A stretch of DNA of 14,821 nucleotides from Bacteroidia bacterium (GTDB lineage: Bacteria > Bacteroidota > Bacteroidia > J057 > JANWXU01). The translations under genes and the position numbers were made by a program. This document shows, piece by piece, positions 2 to 12,073 of this stretch; within the stretch, counting starts at the first letter, position 1; each line of letters starts with the position of its first letter. The notes under the pieces were generated by a model. The model was not told where the DNA came from. It made no database searches and worked only from the letters and a program-made list of their open reading frames with translations. The stretch lies in contig JANWXU010000098.1 of NCBI GenBank assembly GCA_025057395.1, forward strand, positions 1-14,821, read 5' to 3'.

Positions 2-1135
2 GCAAGTAGCACGCAAAGTGCGGCTTTCACCACAGGTAATAGCAAAATCACTGCCCGCATCTACTACTAAGTTTGATGCCCCCCCTTTGCATATAATATA
101 ACTTTGTTTAGTTAAAGTATCTGCACAATCAGCATCCTTAAGCTTAGCTATTAAAGTTACTGTATACTCTCCATTCTGCCGATAAGTATGAGTAATAGGA
201 CCTGCTAACGTAGAAGTGGTGCCATCCCCTAAGCTCCAAAAAAATTGATAGCGTTCAGGGTTAGGAGTGAGATTAGTAAAAGTAGTGGTAAAAGGCGGAG
301 CATTAAAATTAGTTACTGAAGCACTAAAAGCAACCCTAAAATCAGGAGGCAGTACTTTCACTGTAACTTTGGCTCCCGCGGTTTCTCGACCGTTAGTAAC
401 AGTTACTGTATATATAGTAGTAGTAGTGGGCCTTGCAGTGGGAGTAGGAGAAAATGGATTATCTAAACCAGTAGTAGGATTCCATATGTAGCGTACATCT
501 GCTTGGTTAGCCCGAGCTTTGAGCACTACACTTTCACCGCACATAATTTCTGCATCAGGACCCGCTTCCACAGTAAGAGCAGGTGCTTTAATGATAATAG
601 GGTAAGGAAAAGAGAAAGGTTGATTATTCAATGGAATCGAAATAGGCAGACCTTGCAAAGTTACATCCAAGTCTGCCATCACATAAATCATCATTGTATC
701 TCGAGGGCCAGTAGGCTCTGTAGGAGTACCAAAAATGGCTCCACAAGCAAAAATTTGAGCAGGATTTCTACCCGGTGTTAATCTACCTGGAATAGGTACT
801 TTGCCGCCCTGTGTATTATCCGCAGGATTACCGCTGTATAAATTAATAGAAAGCCCGCGCGGAATTTTACGAATACTATCTATTCGAATCTCTCGAAAAC
901 GTACTGTTGCATTACGTCCTTGAAAAACCGTATCGAATTTTTCAGCTACTACAATTTGTAGGTCTAAGTTATAAGGCTCGCCAACAGTACCTACTGGTGG
1001 AGCCTCTGGCGAAAGACAAGCAAGTTTAGGAGTACAAGCATTGCGGTTAGGCGTACATCGCTGACTATACGCCCTTTGCACTAAATATCCTCCTAAGCAA
1101 GCAAAAAGTATAAAAAAGAATACTATTTTTTTCAT
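2..1135 (-). CDS. Secreted PKD-domain and Ig-like-repeat surface protein, N-terminal fragment; the C-terminus lies beyond the window start
   Basis: Hand reverse-complement translation from ATG at 1135 ('cat' at 1133-1135) stays open in frame to the window edge for 378 codons: MKKIVFFFILFACLGGYLVQRAYSQRCTPNRNACTPK...PDFRVAFSASVTNFNAPPFTTTFTNLTPNPERYQFFWSLGDGTTSTLAGPITHTYRQNGEYTVTLIAKLKDADCADTL...DAGSDFAITCGESRTLRATC. The frame was spot-checked at both ends and mid-gene (GPRDTMMIYV at 671-700). It has an N-terminal hydrophobic signal, a classic PKD signature (WxxGDG...HxY...GxYxVxL) and flanking Ig-like segments (EAGPDAEIMCGESVVLKA...YIWNPTTGL...TIYTVTVTNG). It is missing from the supplied ORF track only because its stop codon is outside the window. 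Confidence 0.8.
   Translation of the reverse strand, partial: MKKIVFFFILFACLGGYLVQRAYSQRCTPNRNACTPKLACLSPEAPPVGTVGEPYNLDLQIVVAEKFDTVFQGRNATVRFREIRIDSIRKIPRGLSINLYSGNPADNTQGGKVPIPGRLTPGRNPAQIFACGAIFGTPTEPTGPRDTMMIYVMADLDVTLQGLPISIPLNNQPFSFPYPIIIKAPALTVEAGPDAEIMCGESVVLKARANQADVRYIWNPTTGLDNPFSPTPTARPTTTTIYTVTVTNGRETAGAKVTVKVLPPDFRVAFSASVTNFNAPPFTTTFTNLTPNPERYQFFWSLGDGTTSTLAGPITHTYRQNGEYTVTLIAKLKDADCADTLTKQSYIICKGGASNLVVDAGSDFAITCGESRTLRATC
95..352 (-). other. PKD domain (about aa 262-347 of the partial protein)
   Basis: PPDFRVAFSAS...FFWSLGDGTTSTLAGPITHTYRQNGEYTVTLIAKLKDADCADTLTKQSYIIC matches the PKD consensus (WxFGDG...HxYxxxGxYxVxLxV). Confidence 0.6.
1061..1135 (-). other. Predicted signal peptide of the PKD protein (about aa 1-25), probable SPase I cleavage after AYS
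   Basis: MKK n-region, IVFFFILFACLGGYLV hydrophobic core, then RAYSQ. The Cys at position 13 sits in an LFAC context that resembles a lipobox only weakly. Confidence 0.55.
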
Positions 1136-1174: not shown

Positions 1175-4100
1175 CTATTTATTCAAAATAATTTTGGCTG
1201 TATAGCAATGTTCTTGATTTTGTATTACAAGTATATAAACACCACTGGATAAATCACTTAGGTCTAAAGTGACTAAAGATTCTTTAAGCCTTGGCTGCGA
1301 ATAAACTAATTTACCGTCACTTTGCCAAAGTGCTAGGCTTGAATGGCTAAAATTATTATCTAAAAAGTTAATAAAAAGCATTCCTTGAGTAGGATTAGGA
1401 TATATAAGTGGTACGTCCCCTTCAGAGTAGCTGCTTATGATTTTAGAGGGTAAAGTTTGAAAAACCGTACTTCCCCACTGCCCCGAAATACTGCCTACAT
1501 TCATAGAACACATTGTACAATTAGCCCTAATGCGAATTATATAATTAGTATTTGGTAAAAGGCGGCTAAGCTGTACCAAAGTAGTGGGAGCCGGAACTAA
1601 CATCGTTTGTGCTTGCGCTCCTGATATCCCTAAAGGTTCGTAGGTAAGAATATAACAAACAGCACCAGGTACAGATTCCCAACTAATAGTGGCACTATTT
1701 GCTGAAATGGGCTGTGCTCTCACCGCCGCAGGAGCACTGCAGCTTTGCTCTTTATTACAGCGCGCTATTACGGGTACTCTTTCACTTTCACAATTTGCTA
1801 TAGCCGCAGAAATGTAAAAAGTAGTAGTTTGGTTTAATAATGGAGTAGTTAGCAAATAGGGACTACTTGTAGCTGTAGCTATTAAATTTCCCCCTTGCGG
1901 ACTATCATACATTCGAATTTCATTGCCTGCCGGAATTCCCATTTGAACAGTAAAAGTTACCGATACATTAGCATTACAATAAAACTCTACCTCAGTACTA
2001 GTAGGAGGGGCTGGCGTAGCCTGTAGTACCACCTGAACTCTAGAAGGCGTACTTTCACAGCCAGCGCTCGTCTTTGCTACAAGAACAAACGTTTGTGATT
2101 GATTCACAGGAAGGGTGATAACAAACGGTGCATTATTATCTACAGCAAGTACATTACCCTGTAAATTCCTAAGTTCCAAAACAGAAGCAGGTGTAGATAA
2201 ATGAGCTGAAAAAGTCGCCATACCTCCACTGCTACAAACTCGAATTAAAGGATCAGTTACCTGGGGAGGCGCTGGTACTGCATGAATAACCCCACTGAAA
2301 TTACTTACTAAACTAGTACATCCATTTTGTACCACATAAGTAGCATAATTTTGAGTTTGCACTAAATTCAAAGTTACTGTATGTATAGTATTTTGTACTC
2401 CCATAGTTTGGACGAGGGTACTACCAGGTTCTGTTACTATAAATAAGGTAGAGCCAGGAACCAAATTTTGCAGTGTAAAAGTTAAACTTCCTGCGCCGCA
2501 TCGACTTACAGTAGCAACCGAGGGAGCCTGGGGTATAGGCAAAATATTTGCTACTACCGGTACTCTGACACTTTGACAAGTACCATCCCCTACTGAAACC
2601 CAAAAAGTTGTAGTAGTGGTAATGAAGGGCAGAATTAAAGTATGGTTAGGAGGGCTACTTACATTTATAGGCGAGGAAGCTTGCTCTGAAGAATATAAGT
2701 AAACAACATTACTAGGAGATTGTGCCTGAGCAGTAAAGATCCCTCCTCCTGCACCACAACGACTGATGCTGGCAACTATAGGAGGAGAAGGTGAAGCCTT
2801 TACCTCTATAGTAAACGGTTCGGAGAGAGAACTACAATTTCCACGCATAGTACGCATAAAAAAGCGAGTTGTAGTAGTAAGAATATAGCTAAAGCGATTA
2901 AGGCCACTAACCACTTGACTTTCAATTAACTGGCGTGGATTTTCTTGCCATAGTTCTACAGTAGTACCTGGTTCATTAATGAAAGCTTGTATATTCACTT
3001 CGCTTACGCCACAAATCCAAGCAGGAGCTTGGAGTATTGGCTGCTGAGGTTGTGACAAAACTTGTATTGCTACAGGCACTCGCTGGCTTTTACAAATTCC
3101 TAATTCTGCTTCTACAAAGAAAAAAGTATTACCACTTACGGTAGGAGTTTCTAAAATATAGGGTGCTGTATGAGCAGTGGCAATTGGATTATTATCCTGT
3201 TGGCTTGAATAAAGACGTACAATTGTACCTAAGGGAGAAGCTGTGGCAGTAATATTCACTTTACCCTGCCCACATCGAGTTACCGGGGTAACTACCTCCA
3301 GAGTAGGAGTAGGTAAGAAACGAATAGGCACGACTACTCTTTCTGAAAAACAACTGCCTAATTGAGATTGAAGATAATAAGTAAGAGATGGATTTGCATT
3401 CGAAATGCTAAATAAATATGGAAAAGTAGTCAAAGTTTGTAAAGGCGATTGGGCATTGTCGCTTTGCCATAAGTGGATATGGCTAGGAGTAGGAGAAGCA
3501 GTTTGTACACTAAAATGTAAACTTTGGCCCTGGCAAACAGTCTGTGGTAATACACTAGGAGCCCCAGGTACAGGCAATACGTTTACACTAAAACTTACTC
3601 GGTTGCTTTCACAGCCTGTTTGGTTATCTTTAGCACTTAACCAAAAGGTAGTATTACTACTAAGAGTACCTAATGTAAGAACATAGGGAGATAAAATACT
3701 TTGTAAGGGTGTAATAGCACTTGCAGTAGAATATAAGTGCAAGGTAGTATTCACGCTATTAGGATACGCAATGGTAATAGTTAACTGCCTAGCACCACAA
3801 ATATCGTAGTTAGTAACTGTTGGAGTTAAGGGTAAAGGCAAAATCTGAATCGGCAAGGGCATTAGAGTAGAGGGGCAGTTGTTACTACTTATCACTTCTA
3901 CATAGTAGGTAGTAGTTTGATTTACCATTCCCCAATTTTGAAAGACAAAGCTAGGCCCTCCACTTACTGCAGCTAAAGGTTGGGAACCTGGAATTGCATA
4001 AAGCCTTGCCTGAGAACCATTTGTAGAAACCACAGTAAAGGTTACCGTGCCCGCACCACATCTTTGTAATGGTGAAGGAGTAATTGAAAAAGTAGTAGGC

Positions 4101-7100
4101 GGCTCTACAGTTACCACAAAAGGAGTACGCAAACTACTACAGCCATTAACTTCTACCTCAGCATAAAAAGTAGTAGTGGTATTGATAAAGGGTAAAATAA
4201 CTTCAAAAGGAGAAGTGCGTCTTTGTGCTATTTCCACGCCTCCCTGTGCAAGATTGAAAACGCGCAATACCTCAGTACTGGGAGGTAAGAAAATAGGGCG
4301 TATGGTTGCTACACCACCTTGGCAGAGAGTAGTTGTAGGTATTTGGGGCGCACTAGGCAAAGGAGTAACAAAAATTTCTGTAGTGGAAGTAGCTACACAA
4401 CCATTAGCAGCCCTTACTTCCAGAGTATATATTCCTGCTTGAAGAGGCTGGGCATTTTGCAAAAACAGCACTGGATTCGAAGAAAAGTAATTATTGGGTC
4501 CACGCCAAGTATACTGAGCAAAATTGCCAGGCGCCGTGTAACTTATATCTTTTCCTTGGCAAACCACTTGCCTAACGGGCAAGGAAAGCATAGGTACTTC
4601 TAAAATCGTAATAGCTACACCTACTTTTTCGCTTTCACATTGCAATTGTGCATCAAAAGAAGAAATGTAATAAGTGGTACTAGTAGTAACAGTGCTCGTA
4701 TTCCAAGCTAAAGGAGTTTGAGTAGTTTGAAAAATAAGTTGCTGTGAAAAGTTATATATTCTAAAACTAGTAGCACTGGCAGAACTATGAGTAGCTTCAA
4801 GTGTAAAAGCGGCAGCACCACAGTGACTCAAATTACTGGAATTAACGAGAGGGGGCCTAGGAGGAGGTGCTACTGCTACTACAAAAGGTTGCTTTTCTCC
4901 CGCACAATTTGCTTGAACAGCCTCTACTAAATAAGTAGTAGTTGTGCTTACCAAGCCAACATGCCATAGCCACGGATTCTGGGTAATAGTTGCAATTTTA
5001 TTTTGATTGTGGTAGATATTAAGTGCAACACCATTGGGTTGTGGAGGCAAGGGTATAGAAAGAGAATTTCCTTGACAAATTGTTTGCGGAGCAATAATTG
5101 GAGTAACCGGGGGAGGAGTCACAATAATACTAAATGGTACTCTTTGGGTAGTACACTGAGGGGCCTCTACATTTATTGCTTGCAAATAATAAGTAACGGT
5201 AGTTGTAACAGATACATTCATCGCTCCCCCTAAAGTTTCAAGAATAGGAATACCTCCATTAGGCTGGGTAAATAGTAATATTCTATCATTAGCTAAAGCA
5301 TTATTTACAGTAAATTCTACAATACCTGCTCCACAACGGCTAAGATAAGAAACAGCAGGTGACAATGGCATACGCTGTACAATAGCACTCACAGCAATAC
5401 GCTGACTCTGACAACCACTACTGCTAGCAGCTATATAAAAAGTAGTAGTTTGAGTAATAGGGGGCGTAGTTAAAGTAAATGGTAATGTACTACTGCTTGC
5501 AAGCGGTAGAGCTGCCTGAGCACTTTCAAAAAGAAATACCTCATTAACAGCACCTCCAGCGAGAGGACTAAAAGTAACCACCCCCATGCCACATCGAGTT
5601 ACAGGACTTACTATTGGTGGGGCAGGCTTTTGCGTAGGATCAATAAATAACGTTACTTTAGTACGGGTATTACTTACGCAATTTCTATTGAATGACTCTA
5701 AGTAATAATCCGCTAAAGTAGTTCCAGTAGGAATAGGTAATAAGAAAGAAAACGGCTGTGAATTATCTTCAGCTATAGGAAAACCCCCTATACTTTGAGT
5801 ATACAACCTTACCCCTTGCACAGAGGGGTCTGTTTGTACTCCTTGCAAAAAGTATTGTGAAGCACCCTCACATATGCCAATCAAGGAGTTGGGTAAAACT
5901 GGAGGCAGCGGAGTAGACAATATTTCAATATTCAAAGGACTTCGAGAACTTTCACAGCCATTTTGCCTATTGCGCAAAGAATAATAAATGTTTTGACTTT
6001 GACTAAAAGTATAAGTCAAATTGTTAGGGGGTAGTACCTGCAAAGGAGCGCTGGAATGAGCATCGGCATATAAAACAATTTCAAAATTAGGGTCATTTAT
6101 CAAAAAGGTGTGGCTTATGGAAGTATTGCAAGAACTAAGGCTCAATGGGGAGGGAGCAGAAGGAGTAGGAAATACATCAATATTTGCAGCAATCCTCGAA
6201 CTATTACATTGTCTTGTTGTTTCAAAAAAATCAAAGTAAAAGGTAGTAGGAAAAGTAGCAGTAGTAACAAACTGAAAGGGTAAACTCGATAGACTAGCAA
6301 TGGGAGTAGTAGCATTTGCACTTAAAAAAACTCTAGCGATAGTATTTGCAGGTAGAGCTGCACTAGGTAAAATGGTAAAAGTAACTATACTGCCAGCACA
6401 AGCCTGCAAGCGGTTAACAATAGGCACGGGTAAATTATTTTCAAGAGTAATAATAACAGGGACTCTTTCACTTTTACAGTTATTTTGAAAATTGAAGCTT
6501 TGAACAAAAAATGTAGTGGTGGTAGTAATGTAGGGTGTGGTAATTAAAGCAGGATTACCACCCGCAGTAGCAAAGGGTTCATTAGCAACAGGAGTAGTAT
6601 ATAAAGCTATAGCTTGCCCTCCTGCACCTTCTTGCTGAATGGTAAGCGTAACCATAGAAGCCTGACAAATAGAAACGGGAGCCACCTTAGGAGCCGCAGG
6701 AGTACTAAGCACTTCAATACGACTACTTACTCTAGGGCTGACGCAGTTACTTGCTATATCTATAGATTCAAAGTAGAAAGTTGTTGTAGTATTCAAAAAA
6801 GGAGTTTGCCAGCTGCAAGCGGATAAACAAACTACTGAATCTACGGAGAAAAGGTTTATATCTAATATTCTTACTTTTTTACCTGTAGCATTTAGGATAT
6901 TCAAAAGAGCTTTACTGCCCTGACAAATACTTACACTTTGCACCATAGGAGTCATTACTCTAGGAGCTACTACTATTGGTACAGCAAGCGTATCACTTGG
7001 ACAAAGGTTATTAGTTTGAACAAAATAAAAAGTAGTGCTTTGACTAATAGCTATTTCTACATTAGTAGCCCCTCTATATAATTGCGCAATAACAGTATTG

Positions 7101-10100
7101 CCCAAGTAAGAAGAATACGCTTTGACTGTATCCGCTTCAAAATTAGGGGGTAATGCGAAGCTTACATTTCCTGGTCCACAAAGCTGTACAGGGCTTACTA
7201 TTACCTGGGGTTTAGGGGGTCTTTGCAAAACTCTTGCAATGATAGGTATACTTTCCGAAAAACACCCATCATTACTAGTGCGAAGGTAAAAAGTAGTAGT
7301 AGTAGCGACGGAGGTTTCAAAAATAGCAAAATTTGCCCTTTGGCTCTGTAGTACTTCTTGGTTCTGGGAAAGAAGTTCTATAGCAGTACCACCAGGTCTT
7401 CCTTGCAACGCAGTAATCGTAATACTTCCACTACCACAGCGTGTAAGTATGGAAGTTGCTGTAGGCGGAGCTGGTCTTTCATGAATATAAACTGTTAATA
7501 AAGTTCTTTCTCGAGTGCTGCAGCCACTTTGGGTATTAATAGCTTCTAGCCAAAATCTTGTAGTAGTAGTAAGGTTATTGAGAATAAAAGTATGGGAAGG
7601 ACCTAAGCTTTCTTGTAAGGGTTCGCCGCCGCTACGTTGTGAATATAAGCGGATAAGGGTATTAGGACTAGCACTGATTGAAAACGAGATATTGCCTGCA
7701 CCACAGCGATGTACTTGGTTACTCGAGACTTCAATGTTGGGTAATGGTAATACGGTAATACTTGCGGGCTTACGATCACTTTCACAGCCTAAGCCTGAAT
7801 GAAATACTGAAGCATAAAACGTAGTATGAGTAGTAATATTATTAAGCGTGAAAGTATAAGGAGCAGAACTACTAACTGCCATAAGCTGCCCGTCTTGTGG
7901 CGCATCGTATAAACGAATTTCTGTACCAGCCGGACTGCCCATATTTGCCGTGAGAGTAACTATGCCCCCTCCACAGGTAGTTATTGAATTTATTTGTGGA
8001 ATCGATAGGTGAATAACTTCAATTCGTAAAGGTACTCTTTCACTTTCGCAGTTACCATAAGCAGCAGAGAAATGATAAGTTGTGGTGGTAGTTATATTGT
8101 ATATAGGAAATAAGTAAGGTGCCATAGGACGTGTATCTAAAGGCTCTGCGTCTTGCATACTTTCATACATTCGAATTTCAGGTGCTAGAGCATTATTAGG
8201 CAATACAGTAATTATTGTTTGCGCTGCCCCACAAAGTCGAATATTCTGCACTATAGGTGGGTTAGGTTTATTAACAATTTGAAAAAACACGGGCTTCAAA
8301 GTAGTACATCGGGTTTGTTGATTAATAACCTGCACATAATATGTAGTAGAACTAGTTAAGATAGGAGTAATAAGAACAAAGGGTTCTGTAACGGCACTAC
8401 TTAAAACTGTTCCCAAGGGATCTTGCAGCAACCGTACTTCTGTGCCTACGCTGGGATTAGGTATTTGAACACTAAAACTAATTTTTCCACTGCCGCAACG
8501 AGTAAGCTCTTTGGTATTAATAAAAGGCTCTTGGGCAGAAAATATAGTTACAGAAGCAGCAGAACGTACTAAGCTTTCGCAGCCCGTTCGAGAGTCTACG
8601 GATACAAAGTAATAGGTAATAGTTTGATTAGCCGCTGTAGAAAAAAGAAAAGGTTCTCTTTCCAGAGTTGCTACAGGTCTTGTTCCTTCGCTTTGAGTAT
8701 ACACTCTTACAAAGTGCCCTTGGGGAACACCTAAAGCAGTAAAAGTAACTAACCCAGTCTCACAGCGCTGAATGTTTTCTACAATAGGTGGAGTTGGCCC
8801 CTCTGAAAGCTGCACTACCACAGGAGTACGGGTAGTACTAGCACAACCATTAGCACTGTATCGGGTGCTTAAAAAGAAAGTAGTGGTAGTAGTAAGTTCG
8901 GGTGTTTCAAAAACATAAGGCGAGGTAGCATCCACTGCCAGCGGCTCACCCCCAAAAGGGGTTGCATATAGCAGTACCTCATCGCCGGGAGGAATATTCA
9001 TAAAAGCAGAAATACTTACTTTTCCTGCTCCGCATCGACTAATATTTTGGGCTATAGGAGGTGCGGGTGGATTAATTGCTGTCGCCGTAACCTTCATACG
9101 GCTCGTACTACTACAACCACTTTGAGAAAAATAGCTACCTATCCAAAAATCTTGAGTTTCTCCCGCCATAAGGGTAGTAGTAAGCTCGTTGATACCCACG
9201 GCTATAGGCTGCCCTCCCTGCTCTTGAGTATATAAATGGACTTCGTCCCCCGAAGGATTACCCATTGTAACACTAAAGGTAACATTTCCACTACCACAGA
9301 TAGTTACATTAGTATTTTCTACACTAGGAGTAGCAGGAGTAGTAGTTACTTGTACAAAAACTGGGGTGCGGGTACTGCTTTCACAATACCCAAGCCTAGT
9401 AGAAAGATAAAAAGTAGTAAGAGTTGTAACAACAGGCGTAGTAAGCAAATAAGGGGCATTAGAAGTAGAATCAATAGCTTGGGTAGCTTGCTCTTGGGTA
9501 TATAAATATATTGTAGTACCGGGAACTAAGCCCATAGTTGCTGTAAAAGTCGCTACCGAGCTAGCACATAAATTTATCGAAGAGGCTGTGGGCGGCGAAG
9601 GAATAGGAGAAATATTTACTTCTAAAGAAGTGCGAGTAGGAGAATAACAATCTGTTAGTACATCCACGGTTTGCAGATAAAAGGTAGTAGGACCTGTAAT
9701 ATCTGGAGTAATAAGCTGATAAGGAGCTGCATTGGTAAAAGTAATTACAGTGCTTGAAAAGGGTGAATCATAAAGCATAATTGTACTTCCTGCCGGGTTA
9801 CCCATAAAAGCAGTGATAGTTACTGGCCCCGGTCCACAGCGCGCATAGGCAATTGCAGTTGGGGGAGCGGGAGGCAAACTGCAAACTAAAGAATCTCCAA
9901 ATTTTATAATATATGCATCGCTAATACCAGCAAAAGATTGCATAAATTGCCCAGGCTGTTGCAAAAGGGGTAGATTGGAACTACTACTTCCTGCTACCAA
10001 AACAGCATTATGACAATCATCAATGGTAATGCCTTTAGCAAAGTCTAAACCCGTAGAGCCTAAATAAGTAGACCAACTCAAGCTACCTGTACTTACATGA

Positions 10101-12073: not shown

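Follow-up and report, generated by a model that had tools for sequence, protein, structure and literature searches.

A 3,632-residue protein from an uncultured Bacteroidia bacterium that probably forms a propeller-tipped, T9SS-exported surface stalk

What is made by a bacterial gene of nearly 11 kb that fills most of the 14,821-nucleotide contig on which it lies (JANWXU010000098.1; the whole contig is referred to here as the window), and what might its product do for the cell? The gene stems from an uncultured Bacteroidia bacterium and its product very probably extends from the cell surface as a long, stiff stalk with a seven-bladed propeller at its tip. Our preferred reading, to which we assign a probability of about 0.65, is that of a long-reach surface adhesin that would be exported by the T9SS, carry its propeller head at the distal end of a stiff Ig stalk and need no SprF partner.

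The giant gene occupies positions 1175–12073 of the minus strand and is a single unbroken reading frame of 3,632 codons, starting with ATG and closed by a stop codon at 1175–1177. Across the same interval no open reading frame longer than 95 amino acids was found in any other frame. The window derives from a metagenome-assembled genome (MAG), which is one reason to consider that the gene might be an assembly artefact or a pseudogene. An 18 kb contig from a second, independently assembled MAG (JAVQVV010000208.1) aligns to window positions 2888–14821 with two mismatches and no indels, and covers 84% of the giant gene at 99.98% identity and free of frameshifts. The codons confirmed by the second assembly are those at 2888–12073. 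The fact that this contig ends within the gene at position 2888, leaving the final 571 codons (1175–2887) to the window only, also speaks for an artefact. On the other hand, both assemblies agree over 9.2 kb of the gene except for two SNPs, the register of the Ig_7 repeats and their cysteine pattern continue unbroken across position 2888, and the terminal FN3 and type A C-terminal sorting domain (CTD) resemble the ends of homologous proteins. No tandem repeats able to mislead an assembler were found at the DNA level in the window. Given the open frame, the agreement with the second assembly and the continuous repeat register, we reject a pseudogene or a misassembly as extremely improbable. No match to an Rfam family was found, and exact-sequence look-ups found no record for either the giant protein or one paralogue (P0280, see below).

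From N- to C-terminus the protein consists of a signal peptide, a DUF7948 domain, a seven-bladed SBBP propeller, 30 Ig_7 repeats together with a single Ig_2-like repeat, an FN3 domain and a type A CTD; all coordinates below refer to the minus strand. The Sec signal peptide (residues 1–29, positions 11987–12073; MKKIILKFTLAFWLSASYLSLLLGAKGLA followed by Gln) is recognized by inspection from its Lys-Lys n-region, a hydrophobic core some 17 residues long and the sequence G-L-A directly before the Gln. At this end of the protein AF2 places a helix at residues 2–26 followed by a disordered stretch. Cleavage by SPase I after G-L-A is likely and would generate an N-terminal Gln. A Gln at position +1 agrees with the 'Q-rule' of the Bacteroidetes. 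The all-β DUF7948 domain (PF25778, 96.8 bits; residues 44–259, positions 11297–11944), for which AF2 predicts strands at residues 43–257, immediately precedes the propeller (SBBP, PF06739, 63.7 bits; residues 260–735, positions 9869–11296).

The stalk begins with the Ig_7 repeats R01–R20 (residues 738–2490, positions 4604–9862), is interrupted by the Ig_2-like repeat (residues 2491–2575, positions 4349–4603; 29.8 bits against Pfam Ig_2 when scanned alone) and continues with repeats R21–R30 (residues 2576–3441, positions 1751–4348). Pfam Ig_7 (PF19081, 'Ig-like domain CHU_C associated') matches in 21 stretches above its gathering score with a total of 559.5 bits, and an HMM trained on the repeats of the protein itself delineates 30 units between residues 738 and 3441. 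The FN3 domain follows at residues 3446–3518 (positions 1520–1738; Pfam fn3, 31.1 bits in a scan of the full protein, 33.9 bits for the region alone). The CTD (residues 3557–3630, positions 1184–1405) falls in the last 76 residues and is matched by type A models only: PF18962 (Por_Secre_tail) gives 48.7 bits against a cutoff of 27, rising to 51.4 bits when the region is scanned alone, and TIGR04183 gives 45.9 bits (cutoff 23), while the type B models CHU_C PF13585 and TIGR04131 give no match. A preliminary description of this DNA, made without database searches, had proposed, without naming a strand, an intact, giant single frame with a head–stalk–FN3–CTD layout and 31 repeats. The open 3,632-codon frame and the second contig bear out its view of the gene; its SBBP, Ig-like, FN3 and type A CTD assignments are all recovered by profiles, in the layout proposed. 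Its conserved N-terminal domain turns out to be DUF7948, and its 31 repeats resolve into the 30 Ig_7 units and one divergent Ig_2-like unit.

The Ig_7 units are about 81–90 residues long and are separated by short proline-rich linkers. Each contains two cysteines, both of which are invariant in all 30 units, and the Ig_2-like repeat follows the same pattern with Cys2505 and Cys2559. An AF2 model of two consecutive units (pLDDT 96.7) consists of two seven-stranded Ig domains, and its best structural matches by TM-score in Foldseek are cryoEM fragments of GhpA (TM-score 0.57–0.67). GhpA is grappling-hook protein A of Aureispira sp. CCB-QB1, a protein of 5,898 amino acids (PDB entries 9flp, 9fls, 9flu, 9g8b and others; bioRxiv 10.1101/2024.01.29.577165). 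A profile built from the repeats of the giant protein finds GhpA in the PDB with E = 1.7e-156 and 519 bits over more than 40 stretches, and apart from GhpA nothing below E = 0.4. The closest characterized relative of the stalk is thus the stem of GhpA, and the two belong to the same repeat family. A word-indexed homologue search gave ten matches with the C-terminal 841 amino acids and one with the repeat profile; the matches are few because the repeats are too diverged for a word index.

The relationship to GhpA suggests how the cysteines may pair. The first cysteine would sit in the A–B turn at the C-terminal end of each Ig domain and the second in the F–G loop at the N-terminal end. Since these positions lie at opposite ends of the domain, the first cysteine of one unit would be placed to bond with the second cysteine of the next, about 151 residues further on. 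In GhpA an inter-domain disulfide links Cys2988 to Cys3140, which are 152 residues apart (bioRxiv 10.1101/2024.01.29.577165), and in domain-table coordinates these two residues map to the same first-cysteine and next-unit second-cysteine positions. About 31 such inter-domain staples would stiffen the array into a rod like the GhpA stem. This pairing, drawn from the Ig topology and the mapping onto GhpA, predicts a disulfide-stapled rod of about 120–140 nm, the same order of magnitude as the roughly 100 nm first proposed for the stalk.

The head, in which PF25778 is followed by the PF06739 repeats of the propeller, is a widespread module. Thousands of DUF7948-SBBP proteins, annotated as 'SBBP repeat-containing protein' and about 30% identical to the head, occur in Acidobacteriota, Cyanobacteria, Bacillota, Bacteroidota and other phyla, where the module is also fused to CBM6, PKD, Calx-beta, FlgD-Ig or T9SS CTD modules. 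Among the matches listed most are 700–1,300 amino acids long and none of 120 contains Ig_7. Among the top 150 representatives, the protein's own entry aside, the head is combined with Ig_7 in only two: a 4,003-residue paralogue from the same organism and a 1,303-residue protein with a type B CTD. Searching the genome contigs with the head gave no confirmed relative. We know of no DUF7948-SBBP protein with a known ligand. The head of the giant protein is most likely a ligand-binding and not a catalytic module; its target would be a surface, a polymer or another cell.

The two ends of the protein outline a putative route to the cell surface. Sec would carry the protein over the inner membrane, and folding and disulfide formation would take place in the periplasm. 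Recognition of the type A CTD would then allow passage through the T9SS translocon in the outer membrane and hand-over to PorV, after which PorU would remove the CTD and link the new C-terminus to anionic LPS. Anchoring at the C-terminus would put the N-terminal DUF7948-propeller head at the outer end of the stalk, where it could serve as a long-reach adhesin. The genomic sequence covered here is the window and the 18 kb contig; among further proteins from the same MAGs, some have annotations as T9SS type A cargo. Type A proteins can also be released instead of anchored, as some are in Flavobacterium, and attachment of the giant protein to the surface is uncertain for this reason. Type A cargo follows the PorV/PorU route to A-LPS; for type B cargo a PorP/SprF partner is required (PMC9143113).

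The surroundings of the gene are visible over a short distance on the downstream side, where the window ends after 1.1 kb. The downstream gene (2–1135, minus strand), 378 codons of which are visible before it is cut by the window edge, encodes a signal peptide, about 230 residues of unassigned sequence and, as found by a profile scan, a PKD domain. It starts 39 nucleotides past the stop codon of the giant gene and no terminator was found in between, and because of this it is probably co-transcribed with the giant gene. Within this visible part no PorP/SprF-like gene is seen beside the giant gene. Upstream, an AT-rich divergent intergenic region of 227 bp (12074–12300, about 31% GC) presumably holds the promoter of the giant gene; the window shows no enrichment of TANNTTTG, the −7 promoter motif of Bacteroidetes. 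The gene on its other side encodes an MVP-like protein, of a class that has been reported from Saprospira and Microscilla, and one preprint describes a correlation between the MVP-like proteins of bacteria and gliding taxa.

Three other readings assign the protein a different function or assembly. The closest solved structure to the head is that of an enzyme, CylK, in which the active site lies between the N-terminal domain and the propeller, so that the giant protein could be a stalk-mounted or released enzyme with a catalytic DUF7948-propeller head. When the head is compared with the PDB (full-length GhpA included) using phmmer, CylK is indeed the sole match, but this match spans a single blade (residues 306–363) and is obtained by the single-sequence search only; a profile of the head alignment matches nothing in the PDB. 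As the module moreover recurs, in adhesin-type fusions, across thousands of proteins, a catalytic role appears improbable. A part in gliding, as in the analogy with SprB drawn in the preliminary description, draws on the fact that SprB too is a giant repetitive T9SS cargo, and on the tendency of MVP-like proteins, according to the one preprint, to track gliding taxa. SprB repeats (PF13573) are however absent at E ≤ 0.01 from a Pfam scan of the giant protein, the CTD is of type A instead of type B, and SprF, which SprB needs for its secretion and its coupling to the track (PMC9143113), has no counterpart among the neighbouring genes seen. On these three grounds we reject membership of the SprB family and hold an SprB-like gliding adhesin to be very improbable. 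The analogy thus falls away: nothing links the protein to a gliding track, and GhpA, which had not been considered, is the nearer relative of the stalk. The expectation from the same source that no SprF-like partner is involved agrees with the type A CTD and with the visible neighbours.

The alternative with most in its favour is a multimer like that of GhpA, in which protomers (seven in GhpA) would line up in parallel to form a rigid, hollow stem carrying a ring of propellers at its tip and would catch prey cells, flagella or particles. The stalk repeats are of the GhpA stem family with the same cysteine pattern, the order of signal peptide, head, Ig stalk and T9SS CTD is the same overall, and the MVP-like neighbour belongs to a class known from Saprospira and Microscilla; grappling hooks are made by Microscilla marina and by Aureispira, a member of the Saprospiraceae. 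Against it stand a head that finds CylK and not GhpA in the PDB, a type A instead of a type B CTD, the lack of visible GhpB/C-like genes beside the giant gene and the smaller number of repeats; in addition, sequence cannot reveal oligomerization. We therefore consider such a multimer unlikely, and prefer the long-reach adhesin. A bolder version, in which the giant protein and perhaps its paralogues as well (at least four) would build GhpA-like multimeric rigid appendages with propeller-ring tips, anchored in the type A manner through PorU and A-LPS and lacking a PorP/PorE basal body, is a speculation that we rate as quite unlikely. If true, it would equip this uncultured Bacteroidia bacterium with interchangeable-head 'harpoons' for the capture of prey, particles or partner cells, and would extend the grappling-hook principle beyond the ixotrophic Saprospiria/Cytophagia and beyond type B cargo.

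The giant protein is not alone in its organism. The same MAGs encode at least four further giant proteins with Ig_7 stalks (P0280, P0136, P0140 and P0149), three of which have a type A CTD while the C-terminus of the fourth is cut off. With the giant protein included, this makes at least five giant paralogues that have Ig_7 stalks in common, and FN3 followed by a type A CTD wherever the C-terminus is known. Their heads vary: in proteins from the same MAGs we find DUF7948-SBBP, DUF2341, a cysteine-rich domain with a PKD array, or regions that are unassigned. The paralogues contain many more Ig_2-like repeats than the giant protein, in arrays of 11–26 copies, and P0280, the only one compared, is about 26–28% identical to it. 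More widely, 62 of the 150 top representative matches contain Ig_7 arrays, mostly together with FN3, and for P0137 and P0280 Pfam confirms a type A CTD. Within this large family the giant protein is fairly ordinary. It provides a concrete, intact case of how Bacteroidota put together long-reach surface proteins from exchangeable parts, here by joining a shared chassis (Ig_7 rod, FN3 and type A CTD) to the very widespread DUF7948-SBBP head. Connecting Pfam Ig_7 arrays with the solved stem of GhpA helps annotation, since it suggests that disulfide-stapled rods may be formed by thousands of proteins that now go under the names 'hypothetical' or 'T9SS type A sorting domain-containing'. The gene is also a possible handle on the ligand of DUF7948-SBBP proteins, while by itself it neither opens nor closes a long-standing question.

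Compared with known systems, the giant protein shares different parts with different relatives. CylK from Cylindrospermum (PDB entries 7ron and 7fh6) is a Friedel–Crafts alkylating biosynthetic enzyme of about 680 amino acids without a stalk or a secretion domain. The DUF7948-SBBP proteins have the same N-terminal two-domain module, and Ig_7-FN3-type A CTD proteins of 3,000–6,400 amino acids from metagenomes have the same chassis with different heads. SprB from Flavobacterium johnsoniae (6,497 amino acids), a gliding adhesin, is likewise giant, repetitive and exported by the T9SS; it has SprB repeats, a type B CTD and an adjacent sprF, and none of the three is seen in the giant protein or its visible neighbourhood. 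GhpA comes closest. It also depends on Sec and the T9SS, has a binding module at its N-terminus, mounted on a long series of Ig-like repeats, and shares the conserved cysteine pair, the spacing of about 151 residues observed here fitting the GhpA disulfide. Its head, however, is a hook module of about 1,400 amino acids (residues 26–1402) to which DUF7948 and SBBP have no detectable similarity, and its 52 Ig repeats compare with 31 in the giant protein. GhpA is regarded as type B cargo, and the genes for the PorP-like and PorE-like GhpB/C lie downstream of its own, whereas here a type A CTD is preceded by FN3 and the downstream gene encodes a PKD-domain protein. Because head, CTD type and neighbouring genes all differ, we reject orthology with GhpA. 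The heptameric hollow stem is known for GhpA alone. That stem is heavily glycosylated, whereas the giant protein shows no enrichment of D[ST][AILVMT], the O-glycosylation motif of Bacteroidota (five sites against 7.5 expected).

The giant gene is a single open reading frame on the minus strand (1175-12073; 3632 codons with an ATG start), and the other frames across this interval contain no ORF longer than 95 aa. These are exactly the coordinates given in the preliminary description, which left the strand unstated. Each domain named there is also recovered by profile searches, namely DUF7948 (aa 44-259, 96.8 bits), SBBP repeats (63.7 bits), Ig_7 (PF19081; 21 stretches, 559.5 bits), fn3 (aa 3446-3518, 31.1 bits) and Por_Secre_tail (aa 3557-3629, 48.7 bits). 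The proposed type A sorting domain is borne out by NCBIfam profile TIGR04183 (45.9 bits; cutoff 23). No type B (CHU_C) and no SprB-repeat match was returned for the protein. A hidden Markov model trained iteratively on the protein's own sequence resolves 30 Ig_7 units, which span aa 738-3441. The array is broken once, by a divergent unit (aa 2491-2575) that scores 29.8 bits against Ig_2 when scanned alone, and the total thus comes to the 31 Ig-like repeats originally counted.

The claim that the gene is intact was evaluated using a second assembly. The 814-aa product of the neighbouring gene is found unchanged on an 18 kb MAG contig (JAVQVV010000208.1 of GCA_033579355.1, 'Bacteroidia bacterium'), which reproduces window positions 2888-14821 with two mismatches and no indels. 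As a consequence, 84% of the giant gene is backed by an independent assembly. In the window, the frame is open over all 3632 codons. The only differences, at 4101 and 4180, lie within 80 bp of each other and are both nonsynonymous (T2632A and P2658L, in repeat R21 of the 30 Ig_7 units and just past it). The second contig stops inside the giant gene at position 2888, and the window is the sole source of the last 571 codons. Across this point the repeat register and the cysteine pattern continue unbroken, and the FN3-CTD ending agrees with those of the homologues. The DNA of the stretch contains no tandem repeats. The protein repeats have a mean amino-acid identity of 26% (maximum 44%) without periodicity. 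The array is thus old and poses no assembly hazard.

A model of two consecutive repeats was built with AF2, using the 28 repeat pairs of the giant protein itself as the alignment input. It has very high confidence (pLDDT 96.7) and consists of two seven-stranded Ig domains, and its top Foldseek matches in the PDB by TM-score are cryoEM fragments of the Aureispira grappling-hook protein GhpA (TMq 0.57-0.67). Stronger evidence is given by the repeat profile, which, unlike a single-sequence search that misses GhpA, retrieves this protein from the PDB with over 40 matching stretches (519 bits, E = 1.7e-156), and no other entry comes close. GhpA is a 5,898-aa T9SS substrate, the 52 Ig-like repeats of which form a stem that is a rigid hollow heptamer with disulfides between neighbouring domains; the complete grappling hook is about 240 nm in length (bioRxiv 10.1101/2024.01.29.577165). 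Repeats matching Ig_7, which is annotated as 'Ig-like domain CHU_C associated', also give a strong profile match to the GhpA stem, which probably makes the GhpA cryoEM structures suitable as the structural reference for PF19081.

Each of the 30 repeats carries exactly two conserved cysteines, in an 'RCGxG' motif at the A-B turn and a 'GCxS' motif in the F-G loop, a pattern that is kept in the Ig_2-like unit. The turn and the loop are at opposite ends of the Ig domain, making an intra-domain bond implausible. The first cysteine of one unit would face the second cysteine of the next, at a spacing of about 151 residues. In GhpA, the inter-domain disulfide Cys2988-Cys3140 joins residues 152 apart (bioRxiv 10.1101/2024.01.29.577165), and according to the domain-table coordinates both fall at the equivalent positions. 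We infer that similar disulfides staple the domains together along the stalk. The propeller ends with Cys731, the location of which would allow a bond to the second cysteine of the first repeat. If each of the 32 domains contributes about 4 nm, the stalk would measure roughly 120-140 nm. Additional cysteines are present as a CxxxC pair in repeat R12 (aa 1749 and 1753; window 6815-6829) and as five residues within FN3 and at its junction with the last repeat (3439, 3445, 3473, 3519 and 3522; window 1508-1759). These extra residues, which do not belong to the two-per-repeat pattern, may serve to fix the stalk at its base.

Downstream, 39 nt after the stop codon of the giant gene, starts a second minus-strand gene (2-1135) that runs off the window edge. 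Its product is a secreted protein with a signal peptide, about 230 aa without a family match and a PKD domain (50.7 bits); its C-terminus, and hence any CTD, lies beyond the window. No terminator was found between the two genes, which are therefore probably co-transcribed as one operon. Upstream and divergent, across a 227 bp AT-rich spacer, lies a plus-strand gene (12301-14745) for an 814-aa homologue of the major vault protein, which matches MVP_shoulder (92.3 bits) and Vault_3 (33.3 bits) but no NCBIfam profile. Bacterial MVP-like proteins are known from Saprospira, Microscilla, myxobacteria (Myxococcales) and Oscillatoriales (bioRxiv 10.1101/872010). GhpA grappling hooks are also made by Microscilla marina and Aureispira (Saprospiraceae). 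No PorE-like and, as was anticipated for a type A CTD, no PorP/SprF-like gene is visible in the neighbourhood.

An exhaustive HMMER search with aa 27-1200 was performed and the best 150 matches were classified. Ig_7 arrays of up to about 45 units are present in 62 of these. The longest has 6,444 aa, and most of the 62 end in FN3; Pfam places a type A CTD in P0137 and P0280. Contrary to what the family name suggests, the tail of several Ig_7 proteins is thus of type A and not CHU_C (type B). Only two other proteins among the best 150 combine the DUF7948-SBBP head with Ig_7: P0273 (1,303 aa, type B CHU_C tail) and P0231/P0280. Four hits share their two source MAGs with the window, namely P0280 (4,003 aa, about 28% identical to the giant protein), P0136 (at least 5,729 aa), P0140/P0283 (6,310 aa) and P0149/P0287 (5,864 aa). 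Their stalks consist of Ig_7 and Ig_2-like units, and their heads are DUF7948-SBBP in P0280, DUF2341 in P0136, Cys-rich with PKD in P0140 and without assignment in the remaining one. FN3 and a type A CTD are present in three of the four; P0136 is incomplete at its C-terminus. A single organism thus has at least five ancient giant paralogues with Ig_7 stalks in common and different heads; the coding sequence of the five adds up to well over 70 kb.

The best-supported reading is that of a T9SS type A cargo that acts as a stalked, long-reach adhesin. The protein would leave the cell via Sec and then the T9SS, after which PorU would swap its CTD for an A-LPS anchor, as is the case for type A cargo (PMC9143113), and the N-terminal propeller head would form the tip of a stalk that is stiff. 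The DUF7948-SBBP module is extremely common: a word-indexed search finds more than 4,500 relatives in many phyla, none of them more than 36% identical, and these are fused to CBM6, PKD, Calx-beta, FlgD-Ig or T9SS CTD modules. These fusion partners lead us to favour a putative binding role for the head. It could alternatively be catalytic: its sole solved relative, CylK from Cylindrospermum, is an enzyme.

What the preliminary description observed is thus confirmed, and its interpretation largely holds, except for the comparator chosen there. None of the defining features of the gliding adhesin SprB is present, SprB repeats being absent and the CTD being of type A, and the rod module is that of GhpA. 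The protein is not a GhpA orthologue either, since its head, CTD type and neighbouring genes are different. The most interesting reading left is that it may oligomerise in a GhpA-like manner. In its working mode it resembles the stalk-and-head adhesins of Bacteroidota, and it adds a member to an already known kind of protein.
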